From NCBI GenBank assembly GCA_016180645.1, contig JACPAV010000027.1:1-57046 (forward strand): a DNA stretch of 57,046 nucleotides, in the 5' to 3' direction. The notes under the pieces were generated by a model. It ran no database searches, had not been told where the DNA came from, and saw only the letters and a list, made by a program, of their open reading frames with translations. Below are positions 36,326 through 54,358 of this stretch, one piece after another; position 1 is the stretch's first letter, and the number at the start of each line of letters is the position of its first letter. Made by a program: the position numbers and the translations under genes. The DNA comes from Nitrospirota bacterium. GTDB taxonomy: Bacteria; JACPQY01.

Positions 36326-36361
36326 CGAGCTATTGTACACTCGCCCAGTCCACATTCCTCG

Positions 36362-36836
36362 TAGAAGCCTGTCGGATTAGCGGCTCCACTAATTTATTTG
36401 CGATGCCGCCGAAGCGCGCCCGAGCAGTGGCTTTGACGATTCATCCGATTTCCACGTTGTCCAAAGACTTCTACCCCCCCCCGGTTCATGCAGGTGCGGG
36501 CTCCCACCCCCGCAGGTAGAGCTTGAGCAGATTGTGGGTGAGGCGGATCAACCTCCACTCCTGACGAACCTTGCCCAGCCGGCGCAATAGAAATCTCCGG
36601 AACCCACGCTCACCTTCTACGGCGCCACCCCCGTGTTCTCCCTAATCGCCTCCACCATCGACCTCACCTGCTACTTGTCGTTGGCCCCCTGCGTCACCTC
36701 GCAGGCTACCACGGCCTGACTCTCCGAGTCCACCGCCGCCTGCGTGTTGTACGCCTGCTCAAAACTCTTCGTCGCACCGTCCTTCATGATCCGACTCTCG
36801 GGATCGGTAAAATTGTCCTGGTCCTTGTCCTCCGGG
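36362..36836 (-). mobile_element. Degraded IS1182-family transposase fragment with probable right IS end
   Basis: Manual translation: NFTDPESRIMK..QAYNTQAAVD..ND, two in-frame TAG (36671-36673, 36617-36619), an internal deletion, then GFRRFLLR..EW.L..LTHNLLKL to TGA at 36486; CCGACAGGCTTCTA end. Confidence 0.8.
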
Positions 36837-36844
36837 AGAGCCAC

Positions 36845-36898
36845 TTGACAAGAAAACAGGGTTTGGTACTATGGTCCGGTGGTTGAACCAGTGAACCA
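36845..36898 (+). promoter_or_regulatory. Sigma70 promoter with FadR/GntR-type operator
   Basis: TTGACA-16 nt-TACTAT; TGGT-N4-TGGTTGAACCA-N4-ACCA at 36872-36898. Confidence 0.75.
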
Positions 36899-36932
36899 AA
36901 TGCAACGCCCAGCCGACCGATCGGAGGTTTCC

Positions 36933-37502
36933 ATGGCTCCATCCCCAGCTCACACGCCGGCAGCCGCCGTCTCGCTCCTGCCAACACCAGCAAACCAGGC
37001 GGTTCGCGCCCTCGAAAAGGACCTCGCCGACTTCGAGGCGACCCGCGGCGAATGGATGCGGCGGATTGCCCTCAACATCGGAAAACTTCAGCAACGATTC
37101 GGCAACAATGCTGTGGGACGCTTCGTGCTCAAACACTTCACCACCCGAATCATCGCAGGGATGATCGTCCGCCTCCGGGTGCTCGGCGTAGGTACAACGG
37201 CTCCCCAATCTGCGCGCGACCTCGTTTACGACTGGCTCAAGCTCGCCAAGTTTTTTCACGCCCCGGTGGAGGTGCAATCGATGACCCCCCATCAGGTCGT
37301 CGTGTGTCACCACGAATGCACGATGGGATTCAGGCCCGGCCAAGGCAAGCTCTGCCGCGCCAGTATGAATATGGATGTCCAGATTATCCGACGCTTGGGC
37401 GGCAAGATGACCATCGAACACACGCTGGCTGAAGGCGCGGACCACTGCCGGCACGTGATCGAGTTCCCCGCTCCTAGAGCTGAAGTAGGGGCGACTCGGT
37501 GA
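36933..37502 (+). CDS. Hypothetical protein, ATC-hydrolase/V4R-like Cys-containing fold
   Basis: GGAGG RBS; HEC..LC...D..TLAEGADHC pattern. Confidence 0.6.
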   Translation: MAPSPAHTPAAAVSLLPTPANQAVRALEKDLADFEATRGEWMRRIALNIGKLQQRFGNNAVGRFVLKHFTTRIIAGMIVRLRVLGVGTTAPQSARDLVYDWLKLAKFFHAPVEVQSMTPHQVVVCHHECTMGFRPGQGKLCRASMNMDVQIIRRLGGKMTIEHTLAEGADHCRHVIEFPAPRAEVGATR

Positions 37503-38290
37503 CTCAACCCCAAACGGGCGCAAAAGCGCCTCGCACCGAGTCGATTCCGAACGGGGAGGCGCTTCAGGCCGCCTTCCACCCCATCGAGAAGCGCAAAGCG
37601 ATCTATGAGGAGGTCATTCGACAGGTCCAGAAACTCATCGAAGACGGCCGTTTCCGCCCGGGGGATCGGCTCCCCGCCGAGCGTGCGCTGGCGGACCAAT
37701 TCGGCGTGAACCGCGCCTCAGTGCGCCAGGCGCTCCATTCCCTCTACCTGCTCCGCGTCGTCGACATCCGTCCGGGCGAAGGCGCCTTCGTTCGTGATCC
37801 CCGGAAGGAAGGCAGCATCGAGGCGTTTCTCCTCGCCGTCATGTCCGAAGAAGGGCTGGATGCCCGCCTGATGGCCGAGGCCCTCGAAGCACGCCGGCTT
37901 TTGGAGGTTCCGCTCGCCGGCTGGGCCGCCGAGGGCGCGACCCCGGAAGACCTGGCGCGCCTCCGCGAGATTTACACCCGAATGGAAAAGGCCTTCGGCG
38001 CGGGCGACCCCTCCTACATCGAACTGGACTGGGAGTTCCACTTGGCCATCGACCATATGAGCGGGCGCCGCCTTCTGCCGCGCCTCCTCACCACCTTCTA
38101 TTCCATGTTCCGCGGCAAGTTCTATTCCCTCTTCGTCGAGATGGGCAAATACCACTTCTCGCTCGATGAGCATCGCAAAATCATCTCCGCTATCGAGAGA
38201 AAAGATGCCGCCGCAGCCCGACGGGCCGTTGCCGCACACCTCTCCGGCGTGGAGGGCTTCCTCGAAAGCGATTCAACCCATGCGGATTGA
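37499..38290 (+). CDS. FadR/GntR family regulator
   Basis: PGDRLPAERALADQFGVNRASVRQAL; FCD domain D.EFH...EH..I. Confidence 0.93.
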   Translation: MTQPQTGAKAPRTESIPNGEALQAAFHPIEKRKAIYEEVIRQVQKLIEDGRFRPGDRLPAERALADQFGVNRASVRQALHSLYLLRVVDIRPGEGAFVRDPRKEGSIEAFLLAVMSEEGLDARLMAEALEARRLLEVPLAGWAAEGATPEDLARLREIYTRMEKAFGAGDPSYIELDWEFHLAIDHMSGRRLLPRLLTTFYSMFRGKFYSLFVEMGKYHFSLDEHRKIISAIERKDAAAARRAVAAHLSGVEGFLESDSTHAD

Positions 38291-39605
38291 AGTCCCCTGG
38301 GGCGACGCGTCACTGGCCCTCGACCTGCCCGACGATTGGGAGATCGTTCGCGCCGCCAACCCCTCCCGGCTCAAGGCCGTGGAGTCCGTTGAGCTTGAAT
38401 TGGAACGCGCGCTGTCCAATCCCATCGGCTGTGCTCCGCTGAGCAACATCCTTCGCCCCGAACATCGAGTCGCCTGTGTGGTGGACGACATCGGCCGCCC
38501 CACTCCGGCGTTCCGCCTGCTTCCTTTGATCCTCAAACGGGTTGCCTCCGCGGGTATCCCCCGCGAAAACCAGACTCTCGTGTTCGCCACGGGTCTGCAC
38601 CGCGGACTGACCGAAGAGGAAATGGTGAAGAAAGTGGGCCGGGAAGTTTTCCAGTCCGTTCGATGTATCAATCACAACGCGAAGGATGCGAACAATCTCC
38701 TCCGGCTCGGGACGACCTCCCGGGGGACACCCGCCATCTTCAACAAGGGGGTCGCCGAGGCGGACGTTCGAATTCTCGTGGGGACGATCGAGCCCCACGT
38801 CCAGGCCGGATTCGGCGGCGGCTGCAAGAACCTGCTCCCGGGAGTGGCGGCAGCCGAGAGCATCGGGGCGAATCACTTTCTGGGCGCCGACCCGGAGCAC
38901 TTCAGCATGATCGGATTCGCGCCGGACCGGAATCCCATGCGGCAGGACCTCGAAGAGGCGGCCCTGATGCTGGGGGGCGCCACGTTCATCGTCAACACCC
39001 TGCTGACTCCGAAGCTCCAAGTGGCGCGTATCCTTGCAGGGCACCCGATCCAAGCCCACCGGGAAGGGCTTTCCGCCGTAAGTCATTCCTACGCCGTGCC
39101 GCTGGAGCAGCCGGCCGACCTCGTGATTACGAATTCCTATCCGCTTGATGTGAATCTGAGACAGGACGTGAAATCCGTGGCCAATGTCCTCTTCGCGGCG
39201 AAACCCAACGGGACGATTCTCGCCTTGTTGCGATCGAGACTCGGTCTGGATGATGTCCGCATCCCATCGTCCCGGTTAGGCCTGCCCCTTGAATGGATTC
39301 GGACCCTCCTCCGCGCCGCGCCCGCTCGCGCGATCCGCGCCCTTTCCACCAGTCCTCGAACGGGGATCGCCGTGGAAGAGCGGTTCTTCCTCTATTTCGC
39401 CCTCCAGGCGCTCAAACGTAATCGCATCTTTGTGTTTTCGCCCACGCTCGCGAGCCAGGTCAACGGCAAGCTCAGAGGCATCCCTCTCAGCGGTGATCTG
39501 GATGTCGCCATCCGAGAGGTGAAACGCCGACTCCCTTCACGTCCGCGTGTGGTCGTATTTCCCGAGGGCGGAGTGACCTACCCCTTGATGGAGGGTCACG
39601 CATGA
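38280..39605 (+). CDS. LarA-family nickel-pincer 2-hydroxy acid racemase/epimerase
   Basis: DDIGRP, ATGLHR, NHNA, EPHVQAGFGGGCK, NH, NPMRQD. Confidence 0.9.
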   Translation: MRIEVPWGDASLALDLPDDWEIVRAANPSRLKAVESVELELERALSNPIGCAPLSNILRPEHRVACVVDDIGRPTPAFRLLPLILKRVASAGIPRENQTLVFATGLHRGLTEEEMVKKVGREVFQSVRCINHNAKDANNLLRLGTTSRGTPAIFNKGVAEADVRILVGTIEPHVQAGFGGGCKNLLPGVAAAESIGANHFLGADPEHFSMIGFAPDRNPMRQDLEEAALMLGGATFIVNTLLTPKLQVARILAGHPIQAHREGLSAVSHSYAVPLEQPADLVITNSYPLDVNLRQDVKSVANVLFAAKPNGTILALLRSRLGLDDVRIPSSRLGLPLEWIRTLLRAAPARAIRALSTSPRTGIAVEERFFLYFALQALKRNRIFVFSPTLASQVNGKLRGIPLSGDLDVAIREVKRRLPSRPRVVVFPEGGVTYPLMEGHA

Positions 39606-40570
39606 TCCTCGTAGCCGGGGGAAACGGCTACCTGGGTCGCCATCTCGTGCGAGCGCTCTCTGAACGTGGCGAATCGGTGCGGGTATTCGACCGCGTCCGC
39701 CCCACAGCCCTTCCGGAACGCTGCGTTGTGCTGCGGGGCGACGTCAGGGACGCCGACAAATGCCGCCAAGCCGTGGAGGGCTGTTCCGTCGTCTTCCACC
39801 TCGTCGGAATCATGCCGCAGGCGAAGGCATCCGAAACGCTCATGCACCAAGTTAACGTCGGAGGAACGGCCAACCTTCTCAAGGCGAGTGTCGAAGCGGG
39901 AGTGAAACGATTCGTTTTTCTTTCCAGCATGGAAGTGTACGGGGCATCCGGAAAAGTCCCTCTTGAAGAAGGCGATCAGCCGCAACCGATCGGGGAATAC
40001 GGACGCAACAAGCAGGAAGCGGAGGCGCTCTGCCTCGACACCATGAAGAAATCCGGACTTGAAGTAGTCATCCTCCGTCCTTCCACCATCGTGGGACGGC
40101 AGGTCATCGACCACCAGCTCCGCTCACTTCTCAACTGGGTCGCGCGCAAATGGCCGCTCGTCTCGATCGGCAACGGCCACAGCCGATTCCAGATGTCCTC
40201 ACTCCAGGATTGCGTCTCGGCATGCCTCCTCGCCGTCGAAAGACAGGAAGCATCCGGCCAGGTCTTCAATATCGGGGCCGACGATCCCCCGTCCATCCGG
40301 GAGTTCATGAAGTCGGTGCGCAAGTTGAGTCACAATCCGTTCCCGGTCCTCGCGGTCCCGGCGAAACCGATCAAATGGGTTCTGGCGGCGCTGGACGGGA
40401 TGGGCATCTCCGCCGTGCCCCCCGATCACTTCAAGCTCCTCGATGCCACGTTCGTGATGGACTGCAACAAGGCCAAGAGGATTCTTGGCTGGCGCCCCAC
40501 GCAGTCCAACCTTGATATGTTCCAGGAGGCCTACCAATCGTTTGTAACCGACCGAGGGAGGGAATCATGA
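39602..40570 (+). CDS. NAD-dependent epimerase/dehydrogenase (extended SDR)
   Basis: GGNGYLG, SS, YGRNK. Confidence 0.9.
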   Translation: MILVAGGNGYLGRHLVRALSERGESVRVFDRVRPTALPERCVVLRGDVRDADKCRQAVEGCSVVFHLVGIMPQAKASETLMHQVNVGGTANLLKASVEAGVKRFVFLSSMEVYGASGKVPLEEGDQPQPIGEYGRNKQEAEALCLDTMKKSGLEVVILRPSTIVGRQVIDHQLRSLLNWVARKWPLVSIGNGHSRFQMSSLQDCVSACLLAVERQEASGQVFNIGADDPPSIREFMKSVRKLSHNPFPVLAVPAKPIKWVLAALDGMGISAVPPDHFKLLDATFVMDCNKAKRILGWRPTQSNLDMFQEAYQSFVTDRGRES

Positions 40571-42696
40571 AAGAAAGTCCAACGCCCGAATTCACTATCG
40601 AGTATTTCCGCCGCATTCAGGCCACTCTTGAAAACGACGAGGCCTTCAAGAACTCCCTCCGGGGCGTGGAGGCCGAGTTCGGCATCGGCTATCCGGGGAA
40701 ACAGATGATTCTCTCGCTCAAGGAGGGCCGCCTCGACATTCGGGAGGGAACCCCCGAGCAAGCCGACGCGGGCGTGTTCGTCAGCGAGGAGGGCTGGAAG
40801 AAGCTCATGGCCGGCACCAATCCCGCCCGACTCCTCATTACGCGCAAACTGAAACTCCAAGGCAACTACATGCGCTACGCCAAGTTCATGGGACCCGTCC
40901 TCCAGGTTCTGGAAATCCTCCAAGGCAAGCGGCCGCTCGTCGAGGTGCCGTCGACCGTCACCCGTGAACCGTCACCCGCCCCGATGACCTCCCGCAAGAA
41001 CTCTTCCCCAGCCCCTGAAGCACAGCCTCTGACCCCTGATTCCGATCCGTACGTATTCAAGAAGAAAAGCAAGACGCTGATCGAAAGTGAGGACGGCATT
41101 CCCACCGGAGTCGTCCGGCTGGCCATCATGCGGGGCGCCGGAATTCCGGTGGATTCCATTCAGAAAAAACCGGTGATCGCCATCGCCAACACCTGGGCCG
41201 AAACCACCGCGGGACACGTCCATCTGCGCGAGCTCGCGCGCCACGTCCGGGATGGAATCCTGGAAGCCGGAGGAGTCCCGCTGGAGTTCAACGTGCTCGG
41301 ACCGTGCGACGCCTACGGCAACGGCAACTCCGGCATGCGCTATATCCTCGCCCAGCGCGAGATCATTGCGGATTCGATCGAGACGTTCGCCCGCTCCCAC
41401 TGGTTCGACGGACTCGTCACGATGTCGTCATGCGACAAGAGCAACCCCGGCGTGCTTATGGCCATCGCCCGCCTGGATCTGCCGGCCATCTGCGTTACCG
41501 GCGGCTCGAACATGATGAACGCCCGTTTCCAGAAGGGTTATCGAGGCCTCAATCATCAAAACTACGAGGACATGGCGATGAAACTCGAAACCACCACCTG
41601 CGCCACGTGCGGCTCGTGCGAACTCATGACCACCGCCAACACGATGCAGGCGGCCATGGAGGCCATGGGCATGGCGCTGCCGGGTTCGGCAACGATCCCC
41701 GGTTTCATGGTGGACAAACAATTCGCGGCGCGCGCGGCCGGCCGACGAATCGTGGGATTGATCAAGGAAGACCTCCGGCCCTCGAAGATCATGACGTACG
41801 AGGCTTTTGAGAACGCCATCATGGTCGACATGGCCATCGGCGGCTCCACCAATGCCACTCTTCATCTCCCGGCGATCGCCCACGAATGCGGATTCAAGCT
41901 TGACCTTGAACTCTTCAACAAGTACGCCGCGCGCATCCCTACTCTCGCCGGCATCGCGCCGTCCGGTCCTTTCGGCATGTTCGACCTTCACCAAGCCGGA
42001 GGAATCTTTGCCCTGATGAAGAGAATCGAGGATGATCTGCATCTGGACGCACTCACGGTAACGGGACGCACCCTCCGCGAAGAACTCCGCAGCGCGCGGG
42101 TCCTGGACGACAAGGTCATCACATCACGCGAGAAACCATTCTATCCCGAGGGGGGAACGGTCATATTGCGCGGCAACTTGGCCCCGCGCGGCTCAGTCAT
42201 CAAGCAGTCCGCTGTCGCCCGCGAATTCCACCGCTTCCGCGGACCCGCCCGTGTCTTCAACAGCGAAGCCGATACGCTGCGCGCTCTCCAAAACGATCAG
42301 ATTCAGCACGGCGACGCCGTGGTCATCCGGTACGAAGGCCCCAAGGGCGCGCCCGGGATGCCCGAAATGCTGACTGTGACGATGATGCTTGAAGCGATGG
42401 GGCTGAGAGACGTGGCCCTCGTGACCGATGGGCGATTCTCGGGCGCGAGCCACGGGCCGTGCGTCGGCCATGTCACCCCCGAGGCCTACGCCGGCGGCCC
42501 GATCGCAGCCGTCCGTGACGGAGACGCCGTGCGAATCGATATTCCGGAGCGCGGGATCGAGGTTGAGCTTTCGGAATCCGAGATTCGCAGTCGGCTGGCG
42601 GACTTCACCCCGGTCTCGCGACCCATCGAACGAGGGTATCTTCAGCGCTATCGAAGGCTCGTCGGTTCCGCCGCCGAAGGGGCCGTGCTGAGTTGA
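40567..42696 (+). CDS. SCP2 sterol-carrier domain fused to IlvD/Edd-family dehydratase
   Basis: N-terminal ~118 aa SCP2-like (W.KLMAG.NP...ITRKLKLQGN); Pro/Ser linker; PCD, CDK..PG, CGSC..M.TANTM, GGSTN, GPKG.PGMPEM, TDGRFSG, GHVTPEA. Confidence 0.88.
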   Translation: MKESPTPEFTIEYFRRIQATLENDEAFKNSLRGVEAEFGIGYPGKQMILSLKEGRLDIREGTPEQADAGVFVSEEGWKKLMAGTNPARLLITRKLKLQGNYMRYAKFMGPVLQVLEILQGKRPLVEVPSTVTREPSPAPMTSRKNSSPAPEAQPLTPDSDPYVFKKKSKTLIESEDGIPTGVVRLAIMRGAGIPVDSIQKKPVIAIANTWAETTAGHVHLRELARHVRDGILEAGGVPLEFNVLGPCDAYGNGNSGMRYILAQREIIADSIETFARSHWFDGLVTMSSCDKSNPGVLMAIARLDLPAICVTGGSNMMNARFQKGYRGLNHQNYEDMAMKLETTTCATCGSCELMTTANTMQAAMEAMGMALPGSATIPGFMVDKQFAARAAGRRIVGLIKEDLRPSKIMTYEAFENAIMVDMAIGGSTNATLHLPAIAHECGFKLDLELFNKYAARIPTLAGIAPSGPFGMFDLHQAGGIFALMKRIEDDLHLDALTVTGRTLREELRSARVLDDKVITSREKPFYPEGGTVILRGNLAPRGSVIKQSAVAREFHRFRGPARVFNSEADTLRALQNDQIQHGDAVVIRYEGPKGAPGMPEMLTVTMMLEAMGLRDVALVTDGRFSGASHGPCVGHVTPEAYAGGPIAAVRDGDAVRIDIPERGIEVELSESEIRSRLADFTPVSRPIERGYLQRYRRLVGSAAEGAVLS

Positions 42697-43385
42697 AAAT
42701 CACTTTCATTGGCCAGTCCTCATTCAAGATCGAGCTCGACTCGGGGGCGGTGGTGCTGACCGATCCCTGGTTCGGCGGCTATCCCCTTCTCCGAGCGCGC
42801 CGCCCCGCTCTTGGGCCAAACGAAATCGGGGATGTGAAATTGATCCTGGTTTCGCATAACCACATCGACCACATCGATCGGCGCGCTCTTCGGCTGGCCC
42901 TGGAGAAATCCTCCATCGTCGCCGGCCCCCCGTCCGTGGCCCATCGAGCGAAGGTCCGCGGCATCGAAGCCGTGAGCCTCGCTCTCCGGAAGGACTACGA
43001 TTTCGGAGGGCTCAATGTCCACACCGTGCCCGCCGACCATCCCTTGTGCTCCAGTCCATTCGGCTACCTAATTCAGGGTGACGGGAAGACGTTATACTTC
43101 AGCGGTGACACCCGGAATTTCCCGGCTCTGCGTTCCGCCCTTAAAGGCCGCTCCATCGACGTCGCCTTGCTCCAAATCGCCTGCGCCCGGTACTTTGGAA
43201 AGCCGGACGGAATGGACGTTCACTCGGCGGCCGATTTGGCACGCGAGATACATCCGAAGTGCGTCGTCCCGATGCACTATCACGCCCGTTTCAAAGAGGC
43301 CGATCCCCGGCAATTCAAGGAGACACTGACGGAATCGGGAATCCACGTCCAAATCCTGGAGCCGGGAGTTGAGGCGGTTCTGTGA
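42693..43385 (+). CDS. MBL-fold hydrolase (UlaG-like, possible lactonase)
   Basis: LTDPW, SHNHIDH, H, FSGDT, PMHY. Confidence 0.88.
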   Translation: MKITFIGQSSFKIELDSGAVVLTDPWFGGYPLLRARRPALGPNEIGDVKLILVSHNHIDHIDRRALRLALEKSSIVAGPPSVAHRAKVRGIEAVSLALRKDYDFGGLNVHTVPADHPLCSSPFGYLIQGDGKTLYFSGDTRNFPALRSALKGRSIDVALLQIACARYFGKPDGMDVHSAADLAREIHPKCVVPMHYHARFKEADPRQFKETLTESGIHVQILEPGVEAVL

Positions 43386-44365
43386 CCCTTCAAGCTTTCG
43401 AAGGTGTCTATCCCGTGGTTCCCACGCCACTCAAAGAAGACTACAGCGTGGACGAATCCGCCCTTGCCGCGGTGATCGAGTTCCTGATCCGGCGCCGTGT
43501 CCACGGGATCACCGTCCTCGGTTCGAACGGGGAATTCACCTATTTCACCTTTGAGGAGAAAGGCCGCATCCTTCGCGCCGCCGTGCGGGCCGCCAAGGGG
43601 CGCGTCAGGATTCTCGCGGGGACGGGAGCCATGGGAACCGAAGAAACCCTCGCTCTGACTCGCATGGCGAAGGATGTGGGCGCCGATGGCGCCCTCGTCG
43701 CCCTCCCCACCTACTACCCTGCCGCTTTCCCCCAGGTGAAAGCCCACTACCAGGCCGTCGCCCGTCTCGGCCTCCCGATTCTCTTTTATCACTTCCCTGA
43801 TTGCACCCACCTCGTCCTCACGCCCCGCCAGGTGGCGGAGATTTGCATGCTGGAGGGCATCGCGGGGATGAAGGCAAGTATCGTCGATCTGCGGGCCTTC
43901 AAGAGCTACCTCCGAAGAATCTCGAAACCGGCCTTCCATGCTTTCACAGGCGTGACGTACTTGTTCAGACCCGCGCTCGAAAGCGGCGCGAGCGGATTGA
44001 TCTGCCCGATCTCCGCCATTTTTCCCGAGGCCGCCGTCGGTTTCTACGAGGCGTGGAAGAAAGGCGATGCCGCAGCCGCACGGGCCCACGAGACATCGCT
44101 TTGGAAAACGCTCCCCCTCATGAGCGGCTCGGAGGCTCCGTGGCAGGCCTTGTCACTGGGATTTCAGATCGTGAGCAAAACAGGCATCCCCGTGCCCGCC
44201 CGCGGCGGCGACTCTCCGGCCGTCTTCAAGGAGGTCCTGCGGCTCCGCGGACTGCCGATCCGACCGCTCGTCCGCCGCCCCCTGCGACAACTGAATTCGG
44301 CCGAGGCCGCAAGAGCCAAGCGAACCTGGCAGGAGATCCAGAAGAACGGAGTCATGGACACATGA
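43382..44365 (+). CDS. DapA/NAL-family aldolase or dehydratase
   Basis: GSNGEF, YHFP, GMKAS Schiff-base Lys. Confidence 0.9.
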   Translation: MTLQAFEGVYPVVPTPLKEDYSVDESALAAVIEFLIRRRVHGITVLGSNGEFTYFTFEEKGRILRAAVRAAKGRVRILAGTGAMGTEETLALTRMAKDVGADGALVALPTYYPAAFPQVKAHYQAVARLGLPILFYHFPDCTHLVLTPRQVAEICMLEGIAGMKASIVDLRAFKSYLRRISKPAFHAFTGVTYLFRPALESGASGLICPISAIFPEAAVGFYEAWKKGDAAAARAHETSLWKTLPLMSGSEAPWQALSLGFQIVSKTGIPVPARGGDSPAVFKEVLRLRGLPIRPLVRRPLRQLNSAEAARAKRTWQEIQKNGVMDT

Positions 44366-45699
44366 AATACCTGTTGATGCTGTCGCTGATCCTGCTCCCC
44401 GCGCCATGGGTCCATGCCCGCGAGCCCAAAGGCATATACCCCGAAATCCGCGGAACTTTTGATCCGGTGGCGTTGGCGCCGGTCCTCGAAAAGGGCACGA
44501 TCGTCATCATTCATGAAGAGCCTGGAAAACCGACCTTCTTGACGGGCATCCTGCTGATTCATGCCTCCTTCGAGAAGGTCTGGAGCGTGGTGACGGACTA
44601 CGAGAAATATCACGAGTTCGTTCCAAACGTCATCCGCAATACCGTGCTCCAGCGGCATCCGGAAACCCATACCCAGGACACCGAGTACAAGACCGGGTTC
44701 AAGGCAGGACCGATCGAACTGGGCATCGTTTGGACCCTGGAACAACATCTGGAGAAGGACGAACACACCATTTGGGCCGGTCCCTCGAAGATCGGTGAGC
44801 AGGCCTTTAGCGCCGTCAACTACCGCGAAATCTATTTTCCCGTGGACGAACATCGAACGATCATGACCTACACGAACTACGCAGACTTGGCTTCCTTCGG
44901 CGCCCTCGCCAAGCTGGTATTCAAGACCTTTCCCGAGTTGGAGACGCCGACCCTCGTCTCCGTTGGCACGCTCTTCCCCGAGTCCATCAAGGAGCGCGTG
45001 GAGGGCACGCGGGTGATCGTCGAGCCCAAGGAGTTCGATCGCGACCGCGTGAAAATTCCCCCTCCCATCGAGAACAGCGGTGTTCTCGACGGACTGATCC
45101 GCCGCTTTCGGAAGATCGTCCTCTCGTGGTATCCCGATTCGAATGGCATCCGCTTCTTTTCCGCCCTGGCGTTGGTCGACGCCCCATCCGAACAATGCAA
45201 AGCCGTCGTTTCGGATTTCGCTTCCTACCCGCGGATTTTCAAGACCGTCGAGAGCACGCGCAAAGTAAAAGGCACCCCCGATCGATTCACGATGGAGTAT
45301 CGCATGAAGTACAAGGTGGCCCTCCCGCTGACCTTCGAATACTCCCTGGACTACACTTGGGATCCCGAAGGCCGGCGGCTCTCATTTGCCCTCAATCGCA
45401 TTCGCGATCACACCATCGAAGGGGAGTGGGGGGCCTGGGATTTCTATCCCTCGGACGAAAAGACCTTGGTCGGCTACACCAGCTTCACCGATCTTCGGTC
45501 CGGCGGGTTATTTCTTCGCCTTCTCATGGACAATATCGCGGGCTTCGGCACGGGCTTCCGCGTCGGCCTCAACTCGATGGTCATGCAGGCCCTCTCTTCG
45601 GCCATGGCCAAACCGACCCCCAGGACGGGGGAAGTGCCGCGGGAAGACAGGAGTCTGGAGCGGCCGCACGTCTCAAACGGCTCGGAGGTAGGATTCTGA
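44362..45699 (+). CDS. Secreted tandem SRPBCC/START-fold protein
   Basis: Signal peptide; two repeats (EKVWSVVTDYEKYHEFVP / EQCKAVVSDFASYPRIFK). Confidence 0.75.
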   Translation: MKYLLMLSLILLPAPWVHAREPKGIYPEIRGTFDPVALAPVLEKGTIVIIHEEPGKPTFLTGILLIHASFEKVWSVVTDYEKYHEFVPNVIRNTVLQRHPETHTQDTEYKTGFKAGPIELGIVWTLEQHLEKDEHTIWAGPSKIGEQAFSAVNYREIYFPVDEHRTIMTYTNYADLASFGALAKLVFKTFPELETPTLVSVGTLFPESIKERVEGTRVIVEPKEFDRDRVKIPPPIENSGVLDGLIRRFRKIVLSWYPDSNGIRFFSALALVDAPSEQCKAVVSDFASYPRIFKTVESTRKVKGTPDRFTMEYRMKYKVALPLTFEYSLDYTWDPEGRRLSFALNRIRDHTIEGEWGAWDFYPSDEKTLVGYTSFTDLRSGGLFLRLLMDNIAGFGTGFRVGLNSMVMQALSSAMAKPTPRTGEVPREDRSLERPHVSNGSEVGF

Positions 45700-46988
45700 T
45701 GAAAGTGAAACGTCTCGAACTCTATCGCGTCACGATTCCGCTCCCGAAACCCTTCTACCCATCGTGGATTCCCGGGTATCCCCAGACGGAAAACCGCTTC
45801 ACGCTCCTGCGGGTCTTGACCGACGACGGCATCGAGGGCTTCAGCGCGGGCGTGGAAATGGAGGAGGAACGCCAGGGACTCGGCACGCTCCTGGGCCCCT
45901 ATCTCATCGATATGGACCCCCTGGACATCGAGTCCATCCAGCAACGGCTCCGCGAAGCCTCCTACCTCGGCTGGCGCAATAGTTGGATCGAGGCCGCCTT
46001 CTGGGACATCAAAGGCAAAGCCGCCGGCAAGCCGGTGTACGAATTGCTCGGCGGGAAGGGCGGGCGCATTCCCGTCTACTGCTCAACGGGCGAGATCCAC
46101 GATCCCGCCCGGCGCGCGGAGGAGGCGAAGGTCATCAAAAAAGCGGGATACCGGGGCATTAAGCTCCGCGTCCACTCCTTCGATCCGAAGGATGACGTGG
46201 CCGTCCTCGAATCGGTGAGGAAGGCCGTGGGAGACGACATGGACATCATGGTCGATGCGAATCAAGGCTGGCGCGTCACCGTCATCGAGGATGCTCCGCT
46301 GTGGAATCTGGAACGCGCGATCCACTTCGCCCGCGAGTGCGAACGTCTCCGCATCCGCTGGATCGAGGAACCGTTGGATATGTACGGCTACGACGATCTC
46401 GCGACGCTGTGCAAGGAAAGTTCCGTGGCCATCGCCGGCGGCGAGCTCAACGCCGGTTGGCACGAATTCAAGATCATGCTGGAAAAAGGCTCGTACGACA
46501 TTTACCAACCGGACGCCACATTCGCGGGTGGAATCGCCACCTGCAAGAGGCTCATGGATGCCGCTCTCGCCGAGGGACTCAACTACACGCCCCACACTTG
46601 GACCAACGGCATCGGCTTCATGATCAACCTCCAGATCGCTGCTACTCATCCGAATCCGCTGCCCCTCGAATATCCTTACGAGCCACCGGGCTGGATCCCC
46701 GAGGTCCGCGATGCCCTCTTCAAAGAACCGCTCCGGCCGGACAGCGAGGGCAATCTGCTCATCCCGAACAGGCCGGGCCTCGGCTTCGATATCGACCCCT
46801 GGAGGCTGGCACGCTATGGCCGGAAGTTTTTCACCGTCACTCCGCTCAGGCTGGGCCTGCACGTCCTTCGCCGCAAGGGCATCCGAACCACGCTGGAACT
46901 GGGCCGGAGAAAGATGGGGAAGAAGAAGGGGTCAGCGGTCATTCCGCCTCAGGCGGATCAGCCATCAGCAAAGAAACCAGTTTCATGA
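45699..46988 (+). CDS. Mandelate racemase/muconate lactonising (enolase superfamily) enzyme
   Basis: WDIKGK..GKPVYELLGG, KLR, DANQG, EEP, GGE, QPD, PHTW. Confidence 0.9.
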   Translation: MKVKRLELYRVTIPLPKPFYPSWIPGYPQTENRFTLLRVLTDDGIEGFSAGVEMEEERQGLGTLLGPYLIDMDPLDIESIQQRLREASYLGWRNSWIEAAFWDIKGKAAGKPVYELLGGKGGRIPVYCSTGEIHDPARRAEEAKVIKKAGYRGIKLRVHSFDPKDDVAVLESVRKAVGDDMDIMVDANQGWRVTVIEDAPLWNLERAIHFARECERLRIRWIEEPLDMYGYDDLATLCKESSVAIAGGELNAGWHEFKIMLEKGSYDIYQPDATFAGGIATCKRLMDAALAEGLNYTPHTWTNGIGFMINLQIAATHPNPLPLEYPYEPPGWIPEVRDALFKEPLRPDSEGNLLIPNRPGLGFDIDPWRLARYGRKFFTVTPLRLGLHVLRRKGIRTTLELGRRKMGKKKGSAVIPPQADQPSAKKPVS

Positions 46989-48433
46989 GGCACGTCCAGG
47001 CCCTCGCGGTCTTCCTCGCGTTCCTGAACATGATCCCGAGGGTCTGCCCGGCCAACACGTTCGACATCCTGGGGTTCAGCCCGCGGTCCATCGCCATGGG
47101 AGGCGCCTACACGGCCGTGGGCGGAGATGAGGGCAGTCTGTACCACAATCCCGCCGGGCTCGGGCAACTCCATTCCAGCTCCTTCCTCCTCTCGCCGCTC
47201 TGGGATTTTCCGCGATTCTCGGCCCGCCCTGCCTCCCGTCAGGGCGGCGCGCTCCCAGCTCTCACCTTGGATTTCCCGACCGCCGAAAGAAACAGCCGGC
47301 TCATCTCGGCCGCTTCAGGTCCGGATACGGTGTCTGGCACAACGATCGGCCTCGCCCTCAAGGCCGGCCATCATTTCGGTTTCGGCCTCGCGATGTACCT
47401 CCCCGGACGCCCCAACGGCCGCCATTTCCTCGACTTCAATGTCATCAAGTATCGCTTCTTTGACTCCTACACTCCCTACGACCTCCAACAGAACCGAATG
47501 GACCGCCTGATTATCCTGCCCGCCGCAGGTTTGCGAATCCTGGACGGGCTCTCGGTCGGCGCCGGCACTTCGGTCTTGGGCAATGCCACTTCCGAATTCG
47601 TCACCACCATTCCGCTCAGTCCGGATAAGGACGTCCGCATCGTGAGCGATCTGGACATTCCGCCCATCGCCTCCCCCTTCGCGGGAATCTTGTATAGTCC
47701 CATCGAACGGCTCTCCCTGGGCTTGACCTACCGCGATGAGATCAAGCTTCGAGTCAAGGCCGCCGCGAAAACGGAGGTCAGCATCGGAATCGGCTCCCTT
47801 CAATTTCCCGTCTGGATCCCGCTCCAAATCGACGCCGTCACGCACTACACGCCGAGGCAAGTCGTCTTGGGCACGGCCGCACATCTTCTCCCGGAGGTGC
47901 TCGTAACAGGCGAACTGACCTGGGCGCAATGGTCCAAATACGTTCCTCCCTTCCCGAAAATTACGGGGATCGATGAGGAAGCGTTTCAGAAAATCCCCGA
48001 GATGCTCCGGCCGCAACTGCCCTTTGTCCCACCCGTTGAACCGGCTCATTTCAAGAATACGCTCGTCCCCCGGCTCGGCACAGAATGGTCGCCGTCGAAA
48101 GATCTGTCGTTCCGCGCGGGATCGGCGTATGAACCGTCACCCGTCCCCGATCAGAAGGCCACAAGCAACATTCTCGACAGCGACCGCCTGCACCTGACGG
48201 GAGGTGCCGCGTACCACATCGAACCGAATCGCGTGCTTCGTTACCCTATGCGCCTGGACGCGTTTATCCTGTATACTCGTCTTCAACCTCGAACCTTTGA
48301 GAAGAACCTTGATAACCTTCGAGATGAAGACGCTGAAAAAGAAGGGATTCAAACCACCAATCCCGGTTATCCGGGGATCACCTACTCCGGAAACGCCCTT
48401 GCCCTCGGCATTTCGGCAGCGTTCGAATTCTAG
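46985..48433 (+). CDS. FadL/OmpP1 outer-membrane hydrophobic compound channel
   Basis: Signal peptide; SIAMGGAYTA...HNPAGL; C-terminal FEF. Confidence 0.85.
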   Translation: MRHVQALAVFLAFLNMIPRVCPANTFDILGFSPRSIAMGGAYTAVGGDEGSLYHNPAGLGQLHSSSFLLSPLWDFPRFSARPASRQGGALPALTLDFPTAERNSRLISAASGPDTVSGTTIGLALKAGHHFGFGLAMYLPGRPNGRHFLDFNVIKYRFFDSYTPYDLQQNRMDRLIILPAAGLRILDGLSVGAGTSVLGNATSEFVTTIPLSPDKDVRIVSDLDIPPIASPFAGILYSPIERLSLGLTYRDEIKLRVKAAAKTEVSIGIGSLQFPVWIPLQIDAVTHYTPRQVVLGTAAHLLPEVLVTGELTWAQWSKYVPPFPKITGIDEEAFQKIPEMLRPQLPFVPPVEPAHFKNTLVPRLGTEWSPSKDLSFRAGSAYEPSPVPDQKATSNILDSDRLHLTGGAAYHIEPNRVLRYPMRLDAFILYTRLQPRTFEKNLDNLRDEDAEKEGIQTTNPGYPGITYSGNALALGISAAFEF

Positions 48434-49457
48434 ACGCCACACCGTTCTGGGGCTGTTCATCACCCTGATTCTTTGCACGGTCCTGGGCTTCGCGCCGATC
48501 CCCGCCTCCGCCGACCCCATCAAGCTGCGCGGCTCCATTCTCACCCCGGAGGGATCGAGGTGGACTGAGGAAGTGAAGAGCGCCATTCACAAGATCAAGT
48601 CGGCCACCGGAGGCCGCGTGGACGAGACCCTCTACACGGCCGGGGTGCAGGGCGAGGAATCCGAAGTGGTAGAAAAGCTCAAGAAGGGTGATCTCGATAT
48701 CGCCGCGCTGAGCGATCTGGGTCTCGCCTACATCGTGCCGGACATGCAGATCCTGAACCTTCCGTTCTTCATCAAGAATGAGAAAGAGTCGGCCTTCCTG
48801 GAGGGCAAGCTGCACGATCGGTTTGTGCGGGAATTCCGGGAACGTGGTTTCGAACTTCTCTTCTGGAGCCCGGTGGGGCCCGGGTACCTCCACTTCGACC
48901 GACCCATCCGAAACGTCGAGGACATGAAGGGCGTCAGAACGTGGCAATGGAAAGACGATCCCGTGGGCAAGGTGATGATCAAGGAACTTCCCGGACTGAT
49001 CGCGGTACCGCTTCCCCTCGCAGAGGTGCGGTCGGCACTGGAGGAGGACAGGGTGGACGCCGTATATAATGTGCCCCTGGCAACGGTTGCCTTCCAGTGG
49101 CATCCGTTCCTCAAGTACGTCCTTGACGTGCCTGCCGTCGTCGCGGGAGGGGGGACGGTTATCGCCCACCACGCGTGGAACAAGATCAGCCCGGGCGATC
49201 GGGCGATCATGGCGGAGATCAGCCGGAATCAAATTGTCTCCTTCCGGGCGGGCATCGCCGCCGACAGCACCGCCGCCATCCGCGGGTTGAAGAAGTACGG
49301 TGTAATCTTCGAACCGCCGAGTCCGGAGGCCCTGGCGATCCTGGAAAACGCCTCTGACCGAATCCGAAAGCAGCTCGCGGGCACGCTGTTTTCCAAAGAA
49401 ATCCTTGCCGAAGCCGAGCGTCTCCTCGCCGAGTACCGAAAAGGACTGAAACAATAA
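48399..49457 (+). CDS. dctP: TRAP substrate-binding protein DctP (TatP-like); start uncertain
   Basis: Signal-like segment; LTPEGSRW, G.QGEE, LNLPF, DMKG..W.W..DP, FQW. Confidence 0.8.
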   Translation: MPSAFRQRSNSRRHTVLGLFITLILCTVLGFAPIPASADPIKLRGSILTPEGSRWTEEVKSAIHKIKSATGGRVDETLYTAGVQGEESEVVEKLKKGDLDIAALSDLGLAYIVPDMQILNLPFFIKNEKESAFLEGKLHDRFVREFRERGFELLFWSPVGPGYLHFDRPIRNVEDMKGVRTWQWKDDPVGKVMIKELPGLIAVPLPLAEVRSALEEDRVDAVYNVPLATVAFQWHPFLKYVLDVPAVVAGGGTVIAHHAWNKISPGDRAIMAEISRNQIVSFRAGIAADSTAAIRGLKKYGVIFEPPSPEALAILENASDRIRKQLAGTLFSKEILAEAERLLAEYRKGLKQ

Positions 49458-49474
49458 GCGCCTTTCGCTTCCGG

Positions 49475-52225
49475 ATGCGGCCCCGGATTACCCTCGCCAT
49501 TTCACTGATCTTTGCCTGCGCCCCCCGTGCCTCGGCGCAAGAAGAGGAAAACCTGACCCGAAAGTGGACTCTCTACGTCGTTCCCTACAGCCACCTAGAC
49601 GTCGGCTTCACCCAATCCCAAGCCAAAGTTCTGGCCAAGCAGAAAAACAACCTGCGAATCGCCCTGGATTTGATCGACCAGACGAATGACTGGCCGGAAG
49701 GTTCCAAGTTCAAGTACCTCATCGAAACGTCGTGGCCCGCGATCGAATTCATGAAGGACCCCGCCGTCGCGCAGTCGGACAAAGACCGGCTCGTCAATGC
49801 CCTCCTCGCCGGTCGAATGGAAATGGGCGCTTTCTACATCAACCACCAGAACCGATTTCTCGACGGGGAAGCGCTCCTCCGATCCGTCAGTCTCACCAAA
49901 GACGCTTTTAAGGAACCCTTCGGAGTCCCCATCGACACGGCGATCATCGATGACGTCTGCGACGGAAGCGGGGTGTTGAACATCCTTACCCAGCACCGAG
50001 TGAAATACTTCATGCTGGGTTGCAACGTGTCGCATTGGGCGCTTCCGCCGCTGTTTTACATGGAGGCGCCAGGCGTCTTCCGCGACAAGCTGTTGGTCTA
50101 CCTGCCGCCGTTCATCGGCGGATACAACGGCGCATTCGACCTCTCGCTGGTGACACCCCTTCCCTTCGATCCCAACGCGGCCATCCCCAAATACGAGCCG
50201 AAAATCTACGAATTCCTCGAAGCGATGGAGCAGCGCGGCGTTGCCCCGCTGGCTGAACGGGCCTTCGACTATCGTGGACAGACCATCGACTATCCCTACG
50301 ATGCCTTGCTCGTTCCCTATCCCTCGCCGCACGGCCCCGACAACGGCGAGCAAGATCTCACGATCAGCGAGATCGCACGGGACTGGAACGCACGGCATGG
50401 CAATCCAAGGATCGTCGTCTCCACCCCGCGCGAATTCTTCGAGCACATCGAGAACGGTTTCCGAAAAGAGATCCCCGTGCTGGAGGGCGAACTCGGCGGT
50501 TGGTGGGGCGAACAGATCTTCTGGGACTTGCTCCAGACCGACCCGAGGAAGGAATCGATGAGCCGGGATGTTTTCCGAATGGCCGATTCCATCGGCCCTC
50601 TTCTCGCAATGGTCGATCCCTCGACATCAGACACGGCTCGCGAAACACTCCGCGAAGCCTATTCCAAAATCTTGCTCAACACGGATCATAATCCCGCACC
50701 GGTCCCGTTCGGAAATACGCCTTACACGGAGGACGACGTGCGGATTTGGAAAGAGACGCGTCGGAATGGGATGGAGGAGGCATGGCAATCGGTTCGCGAT
50801 CTCTCAGCGAAACTCTCATCGACACCACCATCCGCCGACACCGCCGCAATCTCCCTCCCGTCCGCACAGGGGGGTGATAAGGACACCTGCGAAATCTCCC
50901 TTGGCGATGGCGATGCGACGGTCGCCGATGGGGAACTCCTCGTCCATTTCTCCGTCCACCCATTCGGTGTTACACGCATTGAGCATCGCGCCACCGGCGA
51001 AACGCTGCTGGAGAGCGCCGAGGGAACGCCCTTGTTTCAGTACGGCACGCTGACGCGCCCCGAGGCAGGCCCAATGGCCGGCGGACCCTTGAACGGGATC
51101 GGGGGACCTCCCACGTATCACCGGTCCACATCCAATGAATCCCTCGAAGCGCTGAAGGCTCCGCCCGAATGCGGCTTACGCTCGACCTTGGCGGCCGAAG
51201 GTGGATTCGCCCTTCAGCGAACTATTCGGGTCGTTCCATCTGTCACGCGAATCGAACTCACCGCGGAATTCACCGCTCCCTCGCCTCAGTCTGCAGAGCA
51301 TGTCTTTTCCTTCCGTCTCCCCATCGGCTCCCCTTCTGATCTGACCGTGGATGGGCCCTACCGCGTGTACCACTACGGCGCCTCGGATCCCCTTGGCTGG
51401 TATCCGGTTCCCCTGCGCGGTGATCTCTTCGCTACTCTGGATTTCATCCATCCGGCGCCGACCATCAATGCAACGAACGATATCTTCCAATGGATCAGGG
51501 GAATCCCCCGCAGCCTCGTCGCCCGGAGTTTCGTGGAAGTAGTTGCGGGAAGCAATCGCATCACGTACTCACCATTTGATTCAGGCGTCATCATCCCCTA
51601 CCCCTATCGCGTTGACCCTGTCGGGCCGGAGTCGGTATCCGGTTTCGATCATGTCTGTCTCGGCTCGACCACCTGGGGCAATCTGGGACTTGGGGCCGAC
51701 CTCGGCGGACTCCATCTTTGCAGGGCGACTCTGCAAATCAACACCGCTGCGCTTCCTAACGGCCCCGCCCTATTCGTTACAGATCCAGAGTCGCCGCCAC
51801 TGTCTCTCGATGCACGACACACAATTGTACGCCTGATCCCGGAAACCGATTCGGATCGTCCGGTGGTACGGCTCTTCCAAGCCGGCCCTTTGGAACAAGT
51901 GAGCGTGAAAATGGCCTCCAGATTCGCGGCGCGTTCGGCAGCTCGCGCGACACCCAGCGGTGTACCGCGGTGCCGGCTCCCGTTCAATGTGGCCGGCGGC
52001 GAATTGCGACTGGACCTCGCAGAGAACGAATTGGCGACCCTCGTTTTCACGCAAGAGGATTTCGCCGGTCTGCCCGCTTGCCCGGGCCGCACGGAAGGAT
52101 CCTGCGAATGCGAAACGGTGGGCGCTCCGGTGACCTCCGCCTGGGGAATCCTCGTGTCCTGCCTTCCGCTCGCGGCCTTCTGGTTCGCGAGGCGAAGACG
52201 CTACTGGGGCAGGGCGGGGGACTGA
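49475..52225 (+). CDS. Secreted GH38-like glycoside hydrolase with MYXO-CTERM-like tail
   Basis: Signal peptide; SHLDVGF, E.L.RS, IDDV, GPDN, WN..PRI.VST..EFF; ends GSCEC...TM helix-RRRR. Confidence 0.72.
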   Translation: MRPRITLAISLIFACAPRASAQEEENLTRKWTLYVVPYSHLDVGFTQSQAKVLAKQKNNLRIALDLIDQTNDWPEGSKFKYLIETSWPAIEFMKDPAVAQSDKDRLVNALLAGRMEMGAFYINHQNRFLDGEALLRSVSLTKDAFKEPFGVPIDTAIIDDVCDGSGVLNILTQHRVKYFMLGCNVSHWALPPLFYMEAPGVFRDKLLVYLPPFIGGYNGAFDLSLVTPLPFDPNAAIPKYEPKIYEFLEAMEQRGVAPLAERAFDYRGQTIDYPYDALLVPYPSPHGPDNGEQDLTISEIARDWNARHGNPRIVVSTPREFFEHIENGFRKEIPVLEGELGGWWGEQIFWDLLQTDPRKESMSRDVFRMADSIGPLLAMVDPSTSDTARETLREAYSKILLNTDHNPAPVPFGNTPYTEDDVRIWKETRRNGMEEAWQSVRDLSAKLSSTPPSADTAAISLPSAQGGDKDTCEISLGDGDATVADGELLVHFSVHPFGVTRIEHRATGETLLESAEGTPLFQYGTLTRPEAGPMAGGPLNGIGGPPTYHRSTSNESLEALKAPPECGLRSTLAAEGGFALQRTIRVVPSVTRIELTAEFTAPSPQSAEHVFSFRLPIGSPSDLTVDGPYRVYHYGASDPLGWYPVPLRGDLFATLDFIHPAPTINATNDIFQWIRGIPRSLVARSFVEVVAGSNRITYSPFDSGVIIPYPYRVDPVGPESVSGFDHVCLGSTTWGNLGLGADLGGLHLCRATLQINTAALPNGPALFVTDPESPPLSLDARHTIVRLIPETDSDRPVVRLFQAGPLEQVSVKMASRFAARSAARATPSGVPRCRLPFNVAGGELRLDLAENELATLVFTQEDFAGLPACPGRTEGSCECETVGAPVTSAWGILVSCLPLAAFWFARRRRYWGRAGD

Positions 52226-53082: not shown

Positions 53083-53126
53083 GGACGAATCTTAGCAGAA
53101 CCCAGGAAGGTGTAAACGCGCCGGTG

Positions 53127-53285: not shown

Positions 53286-53312
53286 AAGTTGTCCTCCTTG
53301 ACGCATTGCGGC

Positions 53313-53341
53313 ATGATACTACATGCCAAACACTTTGTCAA
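53313..53341 (-). promoter_or_regulatory. Sigma70 promoter for the small ORF
   Basis: TTGACA-17 nt-TATCAT. Confidence 0.7.
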
Positions 53342-54345: not shown

Positions 54346-54358
54346 TATCTTTCCTCCA

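Follow-up and report, generated by a model that had tools for sequence, protein, structure and literature searches.

The Dahms-type pentose pathway and the UxuA-KdgK-Eda branch of hexuronate catabolism are textbook pathways. UxuA makes 2-keto-3-deoxygluconate (KDG) from D-mannonate, a PfkB kinase and a KDPG aldolase use KDG, and GH38 enzymes are mannosidases. An oxidative mannose route with a dehydrogenase (AldT), a mannonate dehydratase (ManD) and a KDG aldolase has been proposed for Thermoplasma acidophilum in the excerpted text of PMC6901390, and an oxidative mannose route was met in the literature search solely as this proposal. Here a 12-gene operon of a Nitrospirota bacterium (positions 36845..52225, forward strand, of contig JACPAV010000027.1) was compared with these systems. 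The window analysed, 57,046 nucleotides (nt), is the entire contig (C33); the genome to which it belongs measures 4.72 Mb at 97% completeness. The core of the operon is best read as one form of an oxidative mannoside pathway that is widespread yet undescribed.

The T. acidophilum route, as excerpted, follows the same unphosphorylated logic from mannose through mannonolactone, mannonate and KDG to pyruvate and glyceraldehyde. The operon differs from it in that the dehydrogenase is an extended short-chain dehydrogenase/reductase (SDR), a dedicated hydrolase of the metallo-beta-lactamase (MBL) fold is present and a secreted GH38 enzyme belongs to the unit. In place of the direct dehydration of mannonate by ManD, two successive steps are proposed, epimerisation by a LarA-type enzyme and dehydration of the product by an IlvD-type one. 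The series of dehydrogenase, lactonase, IlvD-type dehydratase and YagE-type aldolase is common to the operon and the Dahms-type pathway, and sister loci of the operon use the UxuA, PfkB kinase and KDPG aldolase of the UxuA-KdgK-Eda branch. Relative to both pathways a C2 epimerase step is added, a GH38 link is present and the kinase is missing in this lineage.

Operon structure and proposed route

Twelve forward-strand open reading frames (ORFs) were located between 36879 and 52225, all at the positions given in the initial annotation, and were assigned as follows.

36933..37502, + strand: gene 1, small protein with a weak likeness to ATC_hydrolase (ORF open from 36879)
37499..38290, + strand: gene 2, GntR/FCD transcription regulator (Pfam FCD 99 bits, GntR 68 bits)
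38280..39605, + strand: gene 3, LarA-family nickel-pincer-dependent 2-hydroxyacid epimerase (Pfam Lar_N)
39602..40570, + strand: gene 4, NAD-dependent extended SDR (Epimerase-type), proposed aldose (mannose) 1-dehydrogenase
40567..42696, + strand: gene 5, SCP2 domain (about residues 1-125), flexible linker and IlvD/Edd dehydratase, proposed to convert gluconate to KDG
42693..43385, + strand: gene 6, UPF0173-type MBL-fold hydrolase (Lactamase_B_2), proposed aldonolactonase
43382..44365, + strand: gene 7, DapA/NAL-family class I aldolase (DHDPS), proposed to convert KDG to pyruvate and glyceraldehyde
44362..45699, + strand: gene 8, secreted tandem SRPBCC (START/helix-grip) protein with two Polyketide_cyc/SRPBCC domains and a signal peptide
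45699..46988, + strand: gene 9, enolase-superfamily (MR_MLE) acid-sugar dehydratase, the second dehydratase of the operon
46985..48433, + strand: gene 10, FadL/TodX-family outer-membrane channel (Toluene_X 64.4 bits, cut-off 29.7)
48324..49457, + strand: gene 11, DctP-type TRAP solute-binding protein (start ATG 48324 or TTG 48399)
49475..52225, + strand: gene 12, extracytoplasmic GH38-family glycosidase, alpha-mannosidase-like, with a signal peptide

Genes 1-12 form one real, tightly packed operon. Nine junctions are true overlaps of 1 to 11 nt, each at the position first reported: GTGA at 37499 and 43382, 11 nt at 38280, ATGA at 39602, 40567, 44362 and 46985, TTGA at 42693 and TGATG at 45699. 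The DctP gene also starts inside the end of the FadL gene (stop 48433) from either of its candidate start codons, and the GH38 gene begins 17 nt after the DctP gene. Every family named in the initial annotation was recovered by Pfam above curated cut-offs, and neither a sugar ABC permease, an MFS permease nor a kinase was found within the operon by Pfam and window gene annotation, as that annotation had stated.

The operon is proposed to be a catabolic unit under a GntR/FCD repressor. Its core would most likely run from mannose through mannonolactone, mannonate, gluconate and KDG to pyruvate and glyceraldehyde, and the sugar fed into it would be D-mannose, or a hexose very close to it, taken from alpha-mannosides. 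In this scheme the sugar would be freed by the membrane-anchored extracytoplasmic GH38 enzyme (gene 12) and oxidised to the lactone by the NAD-dependent SDR (gene 4). The lactone would be opened to mannonate by the MBL hydrolase (gene 6), and C2 would be inverted by the LarA-type nickel-pincer enzyme (gene 3) to give gluconate. Gluconate would then be dehydrated to KDG by the IlvD-type enzyme (gene 5), and KDG would be cleaved to pyruvate and glyceraldehyde by the DapA-type aldolase (gene 7). As an addition of this lineage, a mannolipid would cross the outer membrane through FadL and be held by the SRPBCC protein for the glycosidase. An oxidative mannose pathway fed in this way from an amphipathic mannoside is given about an even chance.

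Family membership, conserved catalytic residues, operon structure and the co-conservation of the core across phyla are established. Gene 12 carries the link to mannosides. It scored 33.0 bits against Pfam Glyco_hydro_38N (cut-off 25), with part of the model covered; a plain sequence search of the PDB gave nothing usable, and fold and profile searches were required. An AF2 structure model was built from 37 relatives (pLDDT 80, pTM 0.86) and searched against the PDB with Foldseek. Ranks 1-38 were all GH38 alpha-mannosidases matched at full length, with 7ufu as the best match (E 2e-32, TM 0.63 over about 910 columns). Residues H40, D42, D160, D289 and H405 were invariant in 37 sequences, and in a profile alignment the HxD, D-x-x-G and H motifs matched those of the solved GH38 enzyme Ams1. 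PDB titles give D204 of Golgi mannosidase II as the nucleophile and D341 as the acid-base; the roles of the metal ligands, nucleophile and acid-base of gene 12 are presumed, in part from such titles. The protein is thus far like the GH38 alpha-mannosidases Bl_Man38A (7ufu) and that of Streptococcus pyogenes (2wyh) in full-length fold and in five metal-binding or catalytic residues, although sequence identity is only 10-15%. It is unlike them in being secreted and anchored through a tail of a Cys-rich motif (CECE), a membrane helix and an Arg cluster (RRRR).

The location of a GH38-like enzyme outside the cytoplasm, claimed from the outset, agrees with the signal peptide, the anchored tail and the fold. 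In the last 60 residues the three closest GH38-like proteins (gene 12, P0125 and P0126) share one layout: a Cys-rich motif (CECE or CAC), then a membrane helix, then a basic cluster. Assignment of the tail of gene 12 as MYXO-CTERM was rejected (TIGR03901, 8 bits against a cut-off of 20, E 3.7), only the layout being alike; the tail may be an unnamed sorting signal. The GH38 relatives in sister loci also bear signal or lipoprotein peptides, which suggests sugar release outside the cell and subsequent uptake as the common scheme of these loci.

Gene 3 keeps all five LarA catalytic and cofactor-binding residues: R73, H107, H173, K183 and H199 were invariant in a 35-sequence alignment and were also aligned to Mar2. 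In LarA1 numbering these functions belong to catalytic His108 and His174 and cofactor-binding Arg75, Lys184 and His200 (PMC11770544, excerpted text). Cofactor synthesis genes are present in the genome, all over cut-offs (LarC 436, LarE 315 and LarB 293 bits). A stand-alone SCP2 gene (C40:187297-187572, - strand) lies back to back with larC (C40:187816-188997). The subgroup of gene 3 comprises at least 394 proteins at E <= 1e-30 and is uncharacterised. Conversion of D-mannonate to D-gluconate is proposed for gene 3 from gene context only. LarA-family D-mannonate/D-gluconate 2-epimerases are known according to an excerpt of PMC7583248, and the GntE enzymes LarAH19/20 (PMC7583248 and PMC11770544, both as excerpted) have in common with gene 3 the superfamily, the catalytic His pair, the cofactor-binding Arg, Lys and His and the proposed reaction. 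Gene 3 differs from GntE in belonging to another, uncharacterised subgroup, in scoring below the NCBIfam cut-offs and in having none of the GntE signature residues.

Candidate families for the dehydrogenase, lactonase, aldonate dehydratase and 2-keto-3-deoxy-acid aldolase all lie within the operon. Judged by family, they would fit the non-phosphorylative Entner-Doudoroff/Dahms-type chemistry with a C2 epimerase that had been suggested for the operon. In gene 5 both ILVD_EDD_N and ILVD_EDD_C scored above the Pfam cut-offs (370 and 247 bits). It is a second copy; a separate housekeeping IlvD, 44% identical, is encoded on contig C18. The best PDB relative of gene 7 is YagE, a 2-keto-3-deoxy-sugar-acid aldolase. 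Gene 9 resembles galactonate, talarate and arabinonate dehydratases.

Related loci and the exchange of LarA plus IlvD for UxuA

Related loci were collected from two sides. An alignment of the LarA subgroup was scanned on one genome per species, giving 80 loci in which partners were identified by tblastn (E <= 1e-8), and an alignment of the ten closest GH38-like proteins was scanned on metagenome contigs, giving a further 80 loci. Partner counts were as follows.

SDR: 17/80 LarA-side loci, 13/80 GH38-side loci
MBL hydrolase: 13/80 LarA-side loci, 14/80 GH38-side loci (most frequent partner there)
IlvD: 11/80 LarA-side loci, 5/80 GH38-side loci
DapA-like aldolase: 3/80 LarA-side loci, 0/80 GH38-side loci
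GH38: 2/80 LarA-side loci
LarA: 3/80 GH38-side loci
GntR: 1/80 LarA-side loci, 8/80 GH38-side loci
Gene 1, SRPBCC, enolase, FadL and DctP: 0/80 LarA-side loci, 0/80 GH38-side loci

At least two of the five core genes were found in 35/160 related loci, from several phyla and metagenomes. Where the LarA proteins are closest (42-50% identical), the gene order IlvD-SDR-MBL-LarA is conserved; these loci belong to Chloroflexota, an actinobacterium, a haloarchaeon and others, and Pfam annotation added GH38 in L024 and L029. In Chloroflexota the neighbours of the set are two aldolases (RraA-like and KDPG), a PfkB kinase, a Zn-dependent alcohol dehydrogenase and an MFS permease, and the IlvD (542 residues) has no SCP2 domain. 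In the actinobacterium and haloarchaeon the set occurs with a GH38 enzyme and a DapA-like aldolase. The PfkB kinase and KDPG aldolase were both found in L017, L026, L108 and L109, and such partners indicate KDG as the intermediate. Transporters of the core loci are of the MFS, Nramp-like or ABC types, never FadL, SRPBCC, DctP or SCP2.

Two loci illustrate the exchange of dehydration modules. L108 has the order RpiR, RraA-like aldolase, LarA, IlvD, SDR, MBL, Nramp-like protein, GH38, KDPG aldolase and PfkB, and L113 has the order UxuA, GntR/FCD, GH38, RraA-like aldolase, SDR, MBL, Nramp-like protein, PfkB and two ABC permease genes. UxuA (321-324 bits) was found in five loci with GH38, SDR, MBL, PfkB and GntR, except that MBL and PfkB were not seen in L121. 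LarA and IlvD are absent from all five, and UxuA occurs in none of the 13 loci that hold LarA and IlvD together. No match to UxuA was found in the window's own genome. The simplest reading is that LarA and IlvD jointly do what UxuA does alone, and it is because of this mutual exclusion that the core is read as a route from mannose through mannonate and gluconate to KDG. Since the same enzymes occur with hydrophilic transporters, PfkB, KDPG aldolase and a UxuA swap, the chemistry would most simply act on released mannose. The substrates proposed for the individual steps derive mainly from this swap and from the GH38 family.

Two further genes recur in these loci. An Nramp-family protein is the most recurrent transporter of the GH38/SDR/MBL loci (L018, L019, L026, L108, L109, L111, L113, L114, L117, L120 and L123), with 51-100% identity to that of L108, and may carry sugar rather than metal. 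An RraA-like aldolase is present in 18 loci (e.g. L015, L017, L108 and L111) beside SDR/MBL/LarA/IlvD or UxuA genes and is 70-80% identical in 16 of the other 17; the operon of the window has a DapA-like aldolase instead.

Hydrophobic-ligand modules and alternative readings

The transport and binding genes were confirmed by Pfam as hydrophobic-ligand types (FadL, SRPBCC, SCP2 and DctP), as the initial annotation had it. Genes 10 and 8 and the N-terminus of gene 5 have family membership in common with FadL/TodX/AupA uptake systems and with START and SCP2 carriers. Among the matches listed in the literature search, no operon for sugar acids was found to include such lipid-type parts. Translational coupling joins three separate modules of the hydrophobic-ligand kind to the enzymes, and the SRPBCC gene is placed between the aldolase gene and a dehydratase gene. 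Free mannose does not account for this coupling or for the SCP2 domain on the dehydratase.

The SCP2 domain of gene 5 scored 37.5 bits in Pfam (cut-off 21.3), and its nearest Atlas clusters are SCP2 proteins. The N-terminal part of gene 5 recurred in only two other proteins among 5.8 billion, both of them SCP2-IlvD fusions, and the SCP2 region is 61-65% identical across the three. Gene 8 is predicted to fold as two helix-grip domains like di-domain ARO/CYC cyclases and START lipid carriers and is a candidate periplasmic carrier of a hydrophobic ligand. Its paralog on C8, 72% identical, stands in an unrelated setting beside succinyl-CoA ligase and 2-oxoacid oxidoreductase genes, which are uninformative on function. 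The host lineage is very isolated: one of the 40 relatives offered is in the same family and the other 39 share the domain only. The SRPBCC of that sole same-family genome (G001, 84% complete) is of the C8-paralog type only, and its neighbours, an acyltransferase and a MacB-type exporter, are likewise uninformative. A distant tandem SRPBCC beside an IlvD gene in G002 was dropped, that IlvD being 44% identical, the same as the housekeeping copy. Gene 10 has an N-terminal signal peptide, AupA and FadL among its model matches and an NPA motif, which we take to be significant.

TatP(T) of Treponema pallidum is thought to take hydrophobic ligands, and a conserved Arg of DctP proteins clamps the substrate carboxylate. 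The TatP(T)/TatT TRAP system is like gene 11 in having a DctP-type binding protein; it differs in that neither a TPR partner nor DctQM is found in the window. A TatP-like identity for gene 11 was not borne out, TatP(T) being just 12th of its 19 PDB matches. DctP matches in the window lie at 48543-49373 and 53422-54264, and neither DctQ nor DctM was found there, so gene 11 has no TRAP membrane partner beside it. The genome has a single DctM over cut-off (C25:116512-117735) against about 12 DctP genes. At the place of the Arg in the KIRV of 4xfe, gene 11 reads W-Q-W, and W-x-W occupies this position in all 11 DctP paralogs aligned. These W-x-W proteins may form a family of orphan TRAP binding proteins without the Arg, which may take non-carboxylate ligands and share one membrane unit. 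An amphipathic mannoside (a mannolipid) as the harvested compound is plausible, being suggested by FadL, SRPBCC, the orphan Arg-less DctP, the tethered SCP2 and the enolase-type dehydratase.

Co-conservation of LarA, SCP2-IlvD, FadL and SRPBCC, on which the initial annotation placed weight, stood in part. SCP2-IlvD appears to lie with LarA (66%) and SRPBCC (74%) on a metagenomic contig of 13,684 nt, and with SRPBCC (69%) and GH38 (53%) on one of 14,782 nt; the argument is weakened in that the sharing of contigs was read from identical contig sizes printed for the hits, not from DNA. FadL, SRPBCC and DctP had no relative in the 80 LarA and 80 GH38 loci, so that outside this lineage the outcome is the one that the initial annotation had named as refuting its model. 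The SCP2 fusion and SRPBCC appear to stay with the enzymes inside this lineage, and by comparison with the related loci the hydrophobic-ligand parts are read as lineage-specific additions.

Several further points weigh against an oxidative mannose route fed from a mannolipid. Its weak points among the enzymes are the extended-SDR class of gene 4, the putative lactonase role of a UPF0173 protein, a signature in gene 3 that is not the GntE one and, for gene 5, its likeness to true dihydroxy-acid dehydratase. The best named models of gene 4 are HpnA, LegB, GalE, OleD and SdmB, all far below cut-offs, with no aldose 1-dehydrogenase among its PDB relatives, and no lactonase was found among the PDB matches of gene 6. 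Gene 3 fell under all NCBIfam LarA-homolog cut-offs (best LarAH6, 279 vs 500 bits). It reached no hexonate-epimerase model (NPN_18_hexonate, 18.9 bits against 500) and lacks the E,V,A,H signature of the GntE group at four specificity positions, having V,Q after the second catalytic His where GntE enzymes have E,V. Gene 5 scored nearest dihydroxy-acid dehydratase, just short of the TIGR00110 cut-off (615.6 vs 618.15). Gene 9 finds no role in the proposed core route. The locus counts are descriptive and not independent, the loci forming few kin groups and many being cut by contig ends, and L100, L101 and L103 hold just IlvD, MBL and GH38. Free mannose needs neither FadL, SRPBCC nor SCP2, and an SCP2 domain tethered to a cytoplasmic dehydratase stays unexplained by mannolipid uptake. 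In G001 the GH38 protein found no counterpart and LarA no close one, and the contigs of the 70% and 52% LarA relatives (25,012 and 18,758 nt) were not among the SRPBCC matches.

A plain mannan or oligomannoside operon is an unlikely alternative that nevertheless deserves weight. FadL, SRPBCC, DctP and SCP2 would then be mere passengers, or have a secondary function, for instance in tethering to the membrane or in bringing in the aglycone as a nutrient in its own right, and would not bear on the substrate of the pathway. The core is common to loci without such parts, the SRPBCC paralog on C8 and the presence of that type only in G001 fit a passenger, and six SCP2 domains and about 12 orphan DctP genes make these common parts in the genome. 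Set against this are the nine overlapping junctions, the position of the SRPBCC gene, the SCP2 fusion kept in three proteins and the SRPBCC seemingly kept on both related contigs.

Slightly less likely is the general form of the model in the initial annotation, in which the sugar-acid enzymes act on an intermediate still bearing a hydrophobic group, for example a 6-O-acyl or alkyl mannose that is freed as the glycone, or a terpenoid-linked sugar of the ribosyl type. FadL, SRPBCC and SCP2 would relay this one molecule from the outer membrane as far as the dehydratase, and aldolase cleavage would yield pyruvate and a lipid aldehyde. Such a scheme is consistent with the linker fusion of SCP2 to the dehydratase itself in 3/3 proteins of the lineage, with hydrophobic-ligand genes interleaved and coupled with enzyme genes, with the apparent co-conservation of SRPBCC, with the absence of a sugar permease and, weakly, with the lipid-acting HpnA, OleD and SdmB among the nearest named models of the SDR. 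However, 35 other loci have the enzyme set without a lipid module, beside hydrophilic transporters and a KDG kinase, the SCP2-less enzymes of those loci share 52-55% identity with the catalytic part of gene 5, and no lipid-aldehyde-handling gene is present in the operon. The trimming of a polyhydroxy chain while lipid-bound, as first envisaged, is unneeded for the core, the same enzymes occurring elsewhere with MFS, Nramp-like or ABC transporters, PfkB, KDPG aldolase and UxuA.

More tentative still is an oxidative mannose pathway rebuilt for glycolipid use in this deep-branching lineage, with at least part of the chemistry on a lipid-substituted sugar (e.g. acylated or alkylated mannose) held by the SCP2 domain on the Fe-S dehydratase. 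FadL and a periplasmic tandem START-type carrier would import the mannolipid, the anchored GH38 enzyme would cut it, and the route would end in pyruvate and an aldehyde that bears the lipid.

Known uronate dehydrogenases are PF01370-type SDRs. An oxidative uronate or aldarate route would make the SDR a uronate dehydrogenase, the MBL protein a lactonase, gene 9 an aldarate dehydratase, the DapA-like protein a KdgD-type dehydratase and LarA an aldarate epimerase. This is improbable, even though the best models of gene 9 are L-talarate/galactarate dehydratase (141 bits; PDB 2pp0), gene 7 also matches 5-dehydro-4-deoxyglucarate dehydratase models (95 bits) and one LarA group is tied to uronate metabolism in the excerpted part of PMC7583248. 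GH38 and UxuA in the sister loci indicate mannose and mannonate, the enolase gene lies outside the conserved set (relatives of gene 9 in 0/160 related loci), and it is the aldolase YagE that stands closest to gene 7 in the PDB.

Degradation of bacteriohopanepolyol side chains to pyruvate and a C32 hopanoid aldehyde, the candidate of the initial annotation, is chemically plausible and would use the hydrophobic-ligand modules, and the top NCBIfam row of the SDR is HpnA (115 vs cut-off 368 bits), but it is extremely improbable given that GH38 and the UxuA swap indicate a mannoside, that Chloroflexota, an actinobacterium and a haloarchaeon have the enzyme set together with hydrophilic transporters, that squalene-hopene cyclase had no match in the genome and that no enzymes degrading the hopanepolyol side chain appeared in the titles and abstract openings of the literature search, among the matches listed.

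Promoter region, flanking genes and implications

The region upstream of gene 1 contains the following features.

36845..36872, + strand: sigma-70-type promoter-like site TTGACA-16-TACTAT, 10/12 matches, TG-extended
36880..36890, + strand: palindrome TGGTTGAACCA, candidate GntR-family operator
36486..36868, - strand: insertion sequence (IS) transposase relic in two fragments (36671-36868 and 36486-36641), from stop-to-stop translations

The initial annotation had placed one promoter and one operator here. Of the four promoter-like sites in the 17 kb scanned (36300-53300), this one scored best. Four is an unremarkable count, shuffled sequence giving 3.1 promoter-like sites on average. The palindrome lies inside a longer imperfect inverted repeat (36862-36900) and occurs once in the window, but at least one match was also found in 54/100 shuffles, which is not beyond chance. 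Position alone favours TGGTTGAACCA as a candidate operator; its fit to the GntR operator consensus is presumed. The transposase relic, which we take to be of IS origin from its motifs, abuts and overlaps the operon promoter and hints at a past move or disruption of the operon or its promoter region.

For gene 1 the start ATG 36933 is more likely than GTG 36879 because GGAGG lies upstream of it, while GTG 36879 falls within the palindrome. No family was found for gene 1 other than a match to ATC_hydrolase PF14196 below cut-off (E 0.009), and it had no relatives in the 160 related loci. The nearest models of gene 2 are NanR (131 bits) and LldR (115 bits), with FadR at only 30 bits, so the regulator is not well described as FadR, the name first applied to it. 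GntR/FCD regulators also head the UxuA-type loci L111 and L113.

Downstream, a lipase-chaperone (Lif-like) gene on the - strand (52201-53082) is convergent with the GH38 gene, the two ends overlapping by 25 nt; a lipase gene was not seen in its vicinity. It is preceded by a second DctP gene (53338-54420, - strand) and a 208-residue ORF without a family (54359-54985, - strand). A 653-residue ORF (54951-56912, - strand) has uroporphyrinogen-III synthase (HemD) and uroporphyrinogen decarboxylase (HemE) domains.

The hopanoid idea, relevant to a long-standing geochemical question, gains no support here. Were chemistry on a lipid-bound substrate to prove true, it would be the first case of Entner-Doudoroff-type chemistry of that kind. 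If the hydrophobic-ligand modules and the enzymes share a substrate, lipid uptake would be joined to sugar-acid catabolism, a combination not met among the matches listed in the literature search. The operon belongs to a widespread uncharacterised gene set of a secreted GH38 enzyme, an extended SDR and a UPF0173 MBL hydrolase with either LarA plus IlvD or UxuA. If confirmed, the oxidative mannoside pathway would give a role and a testable substrate to a large LarA subgroup, to UPF0173 hydrolases and to a divergent GH38 clade.

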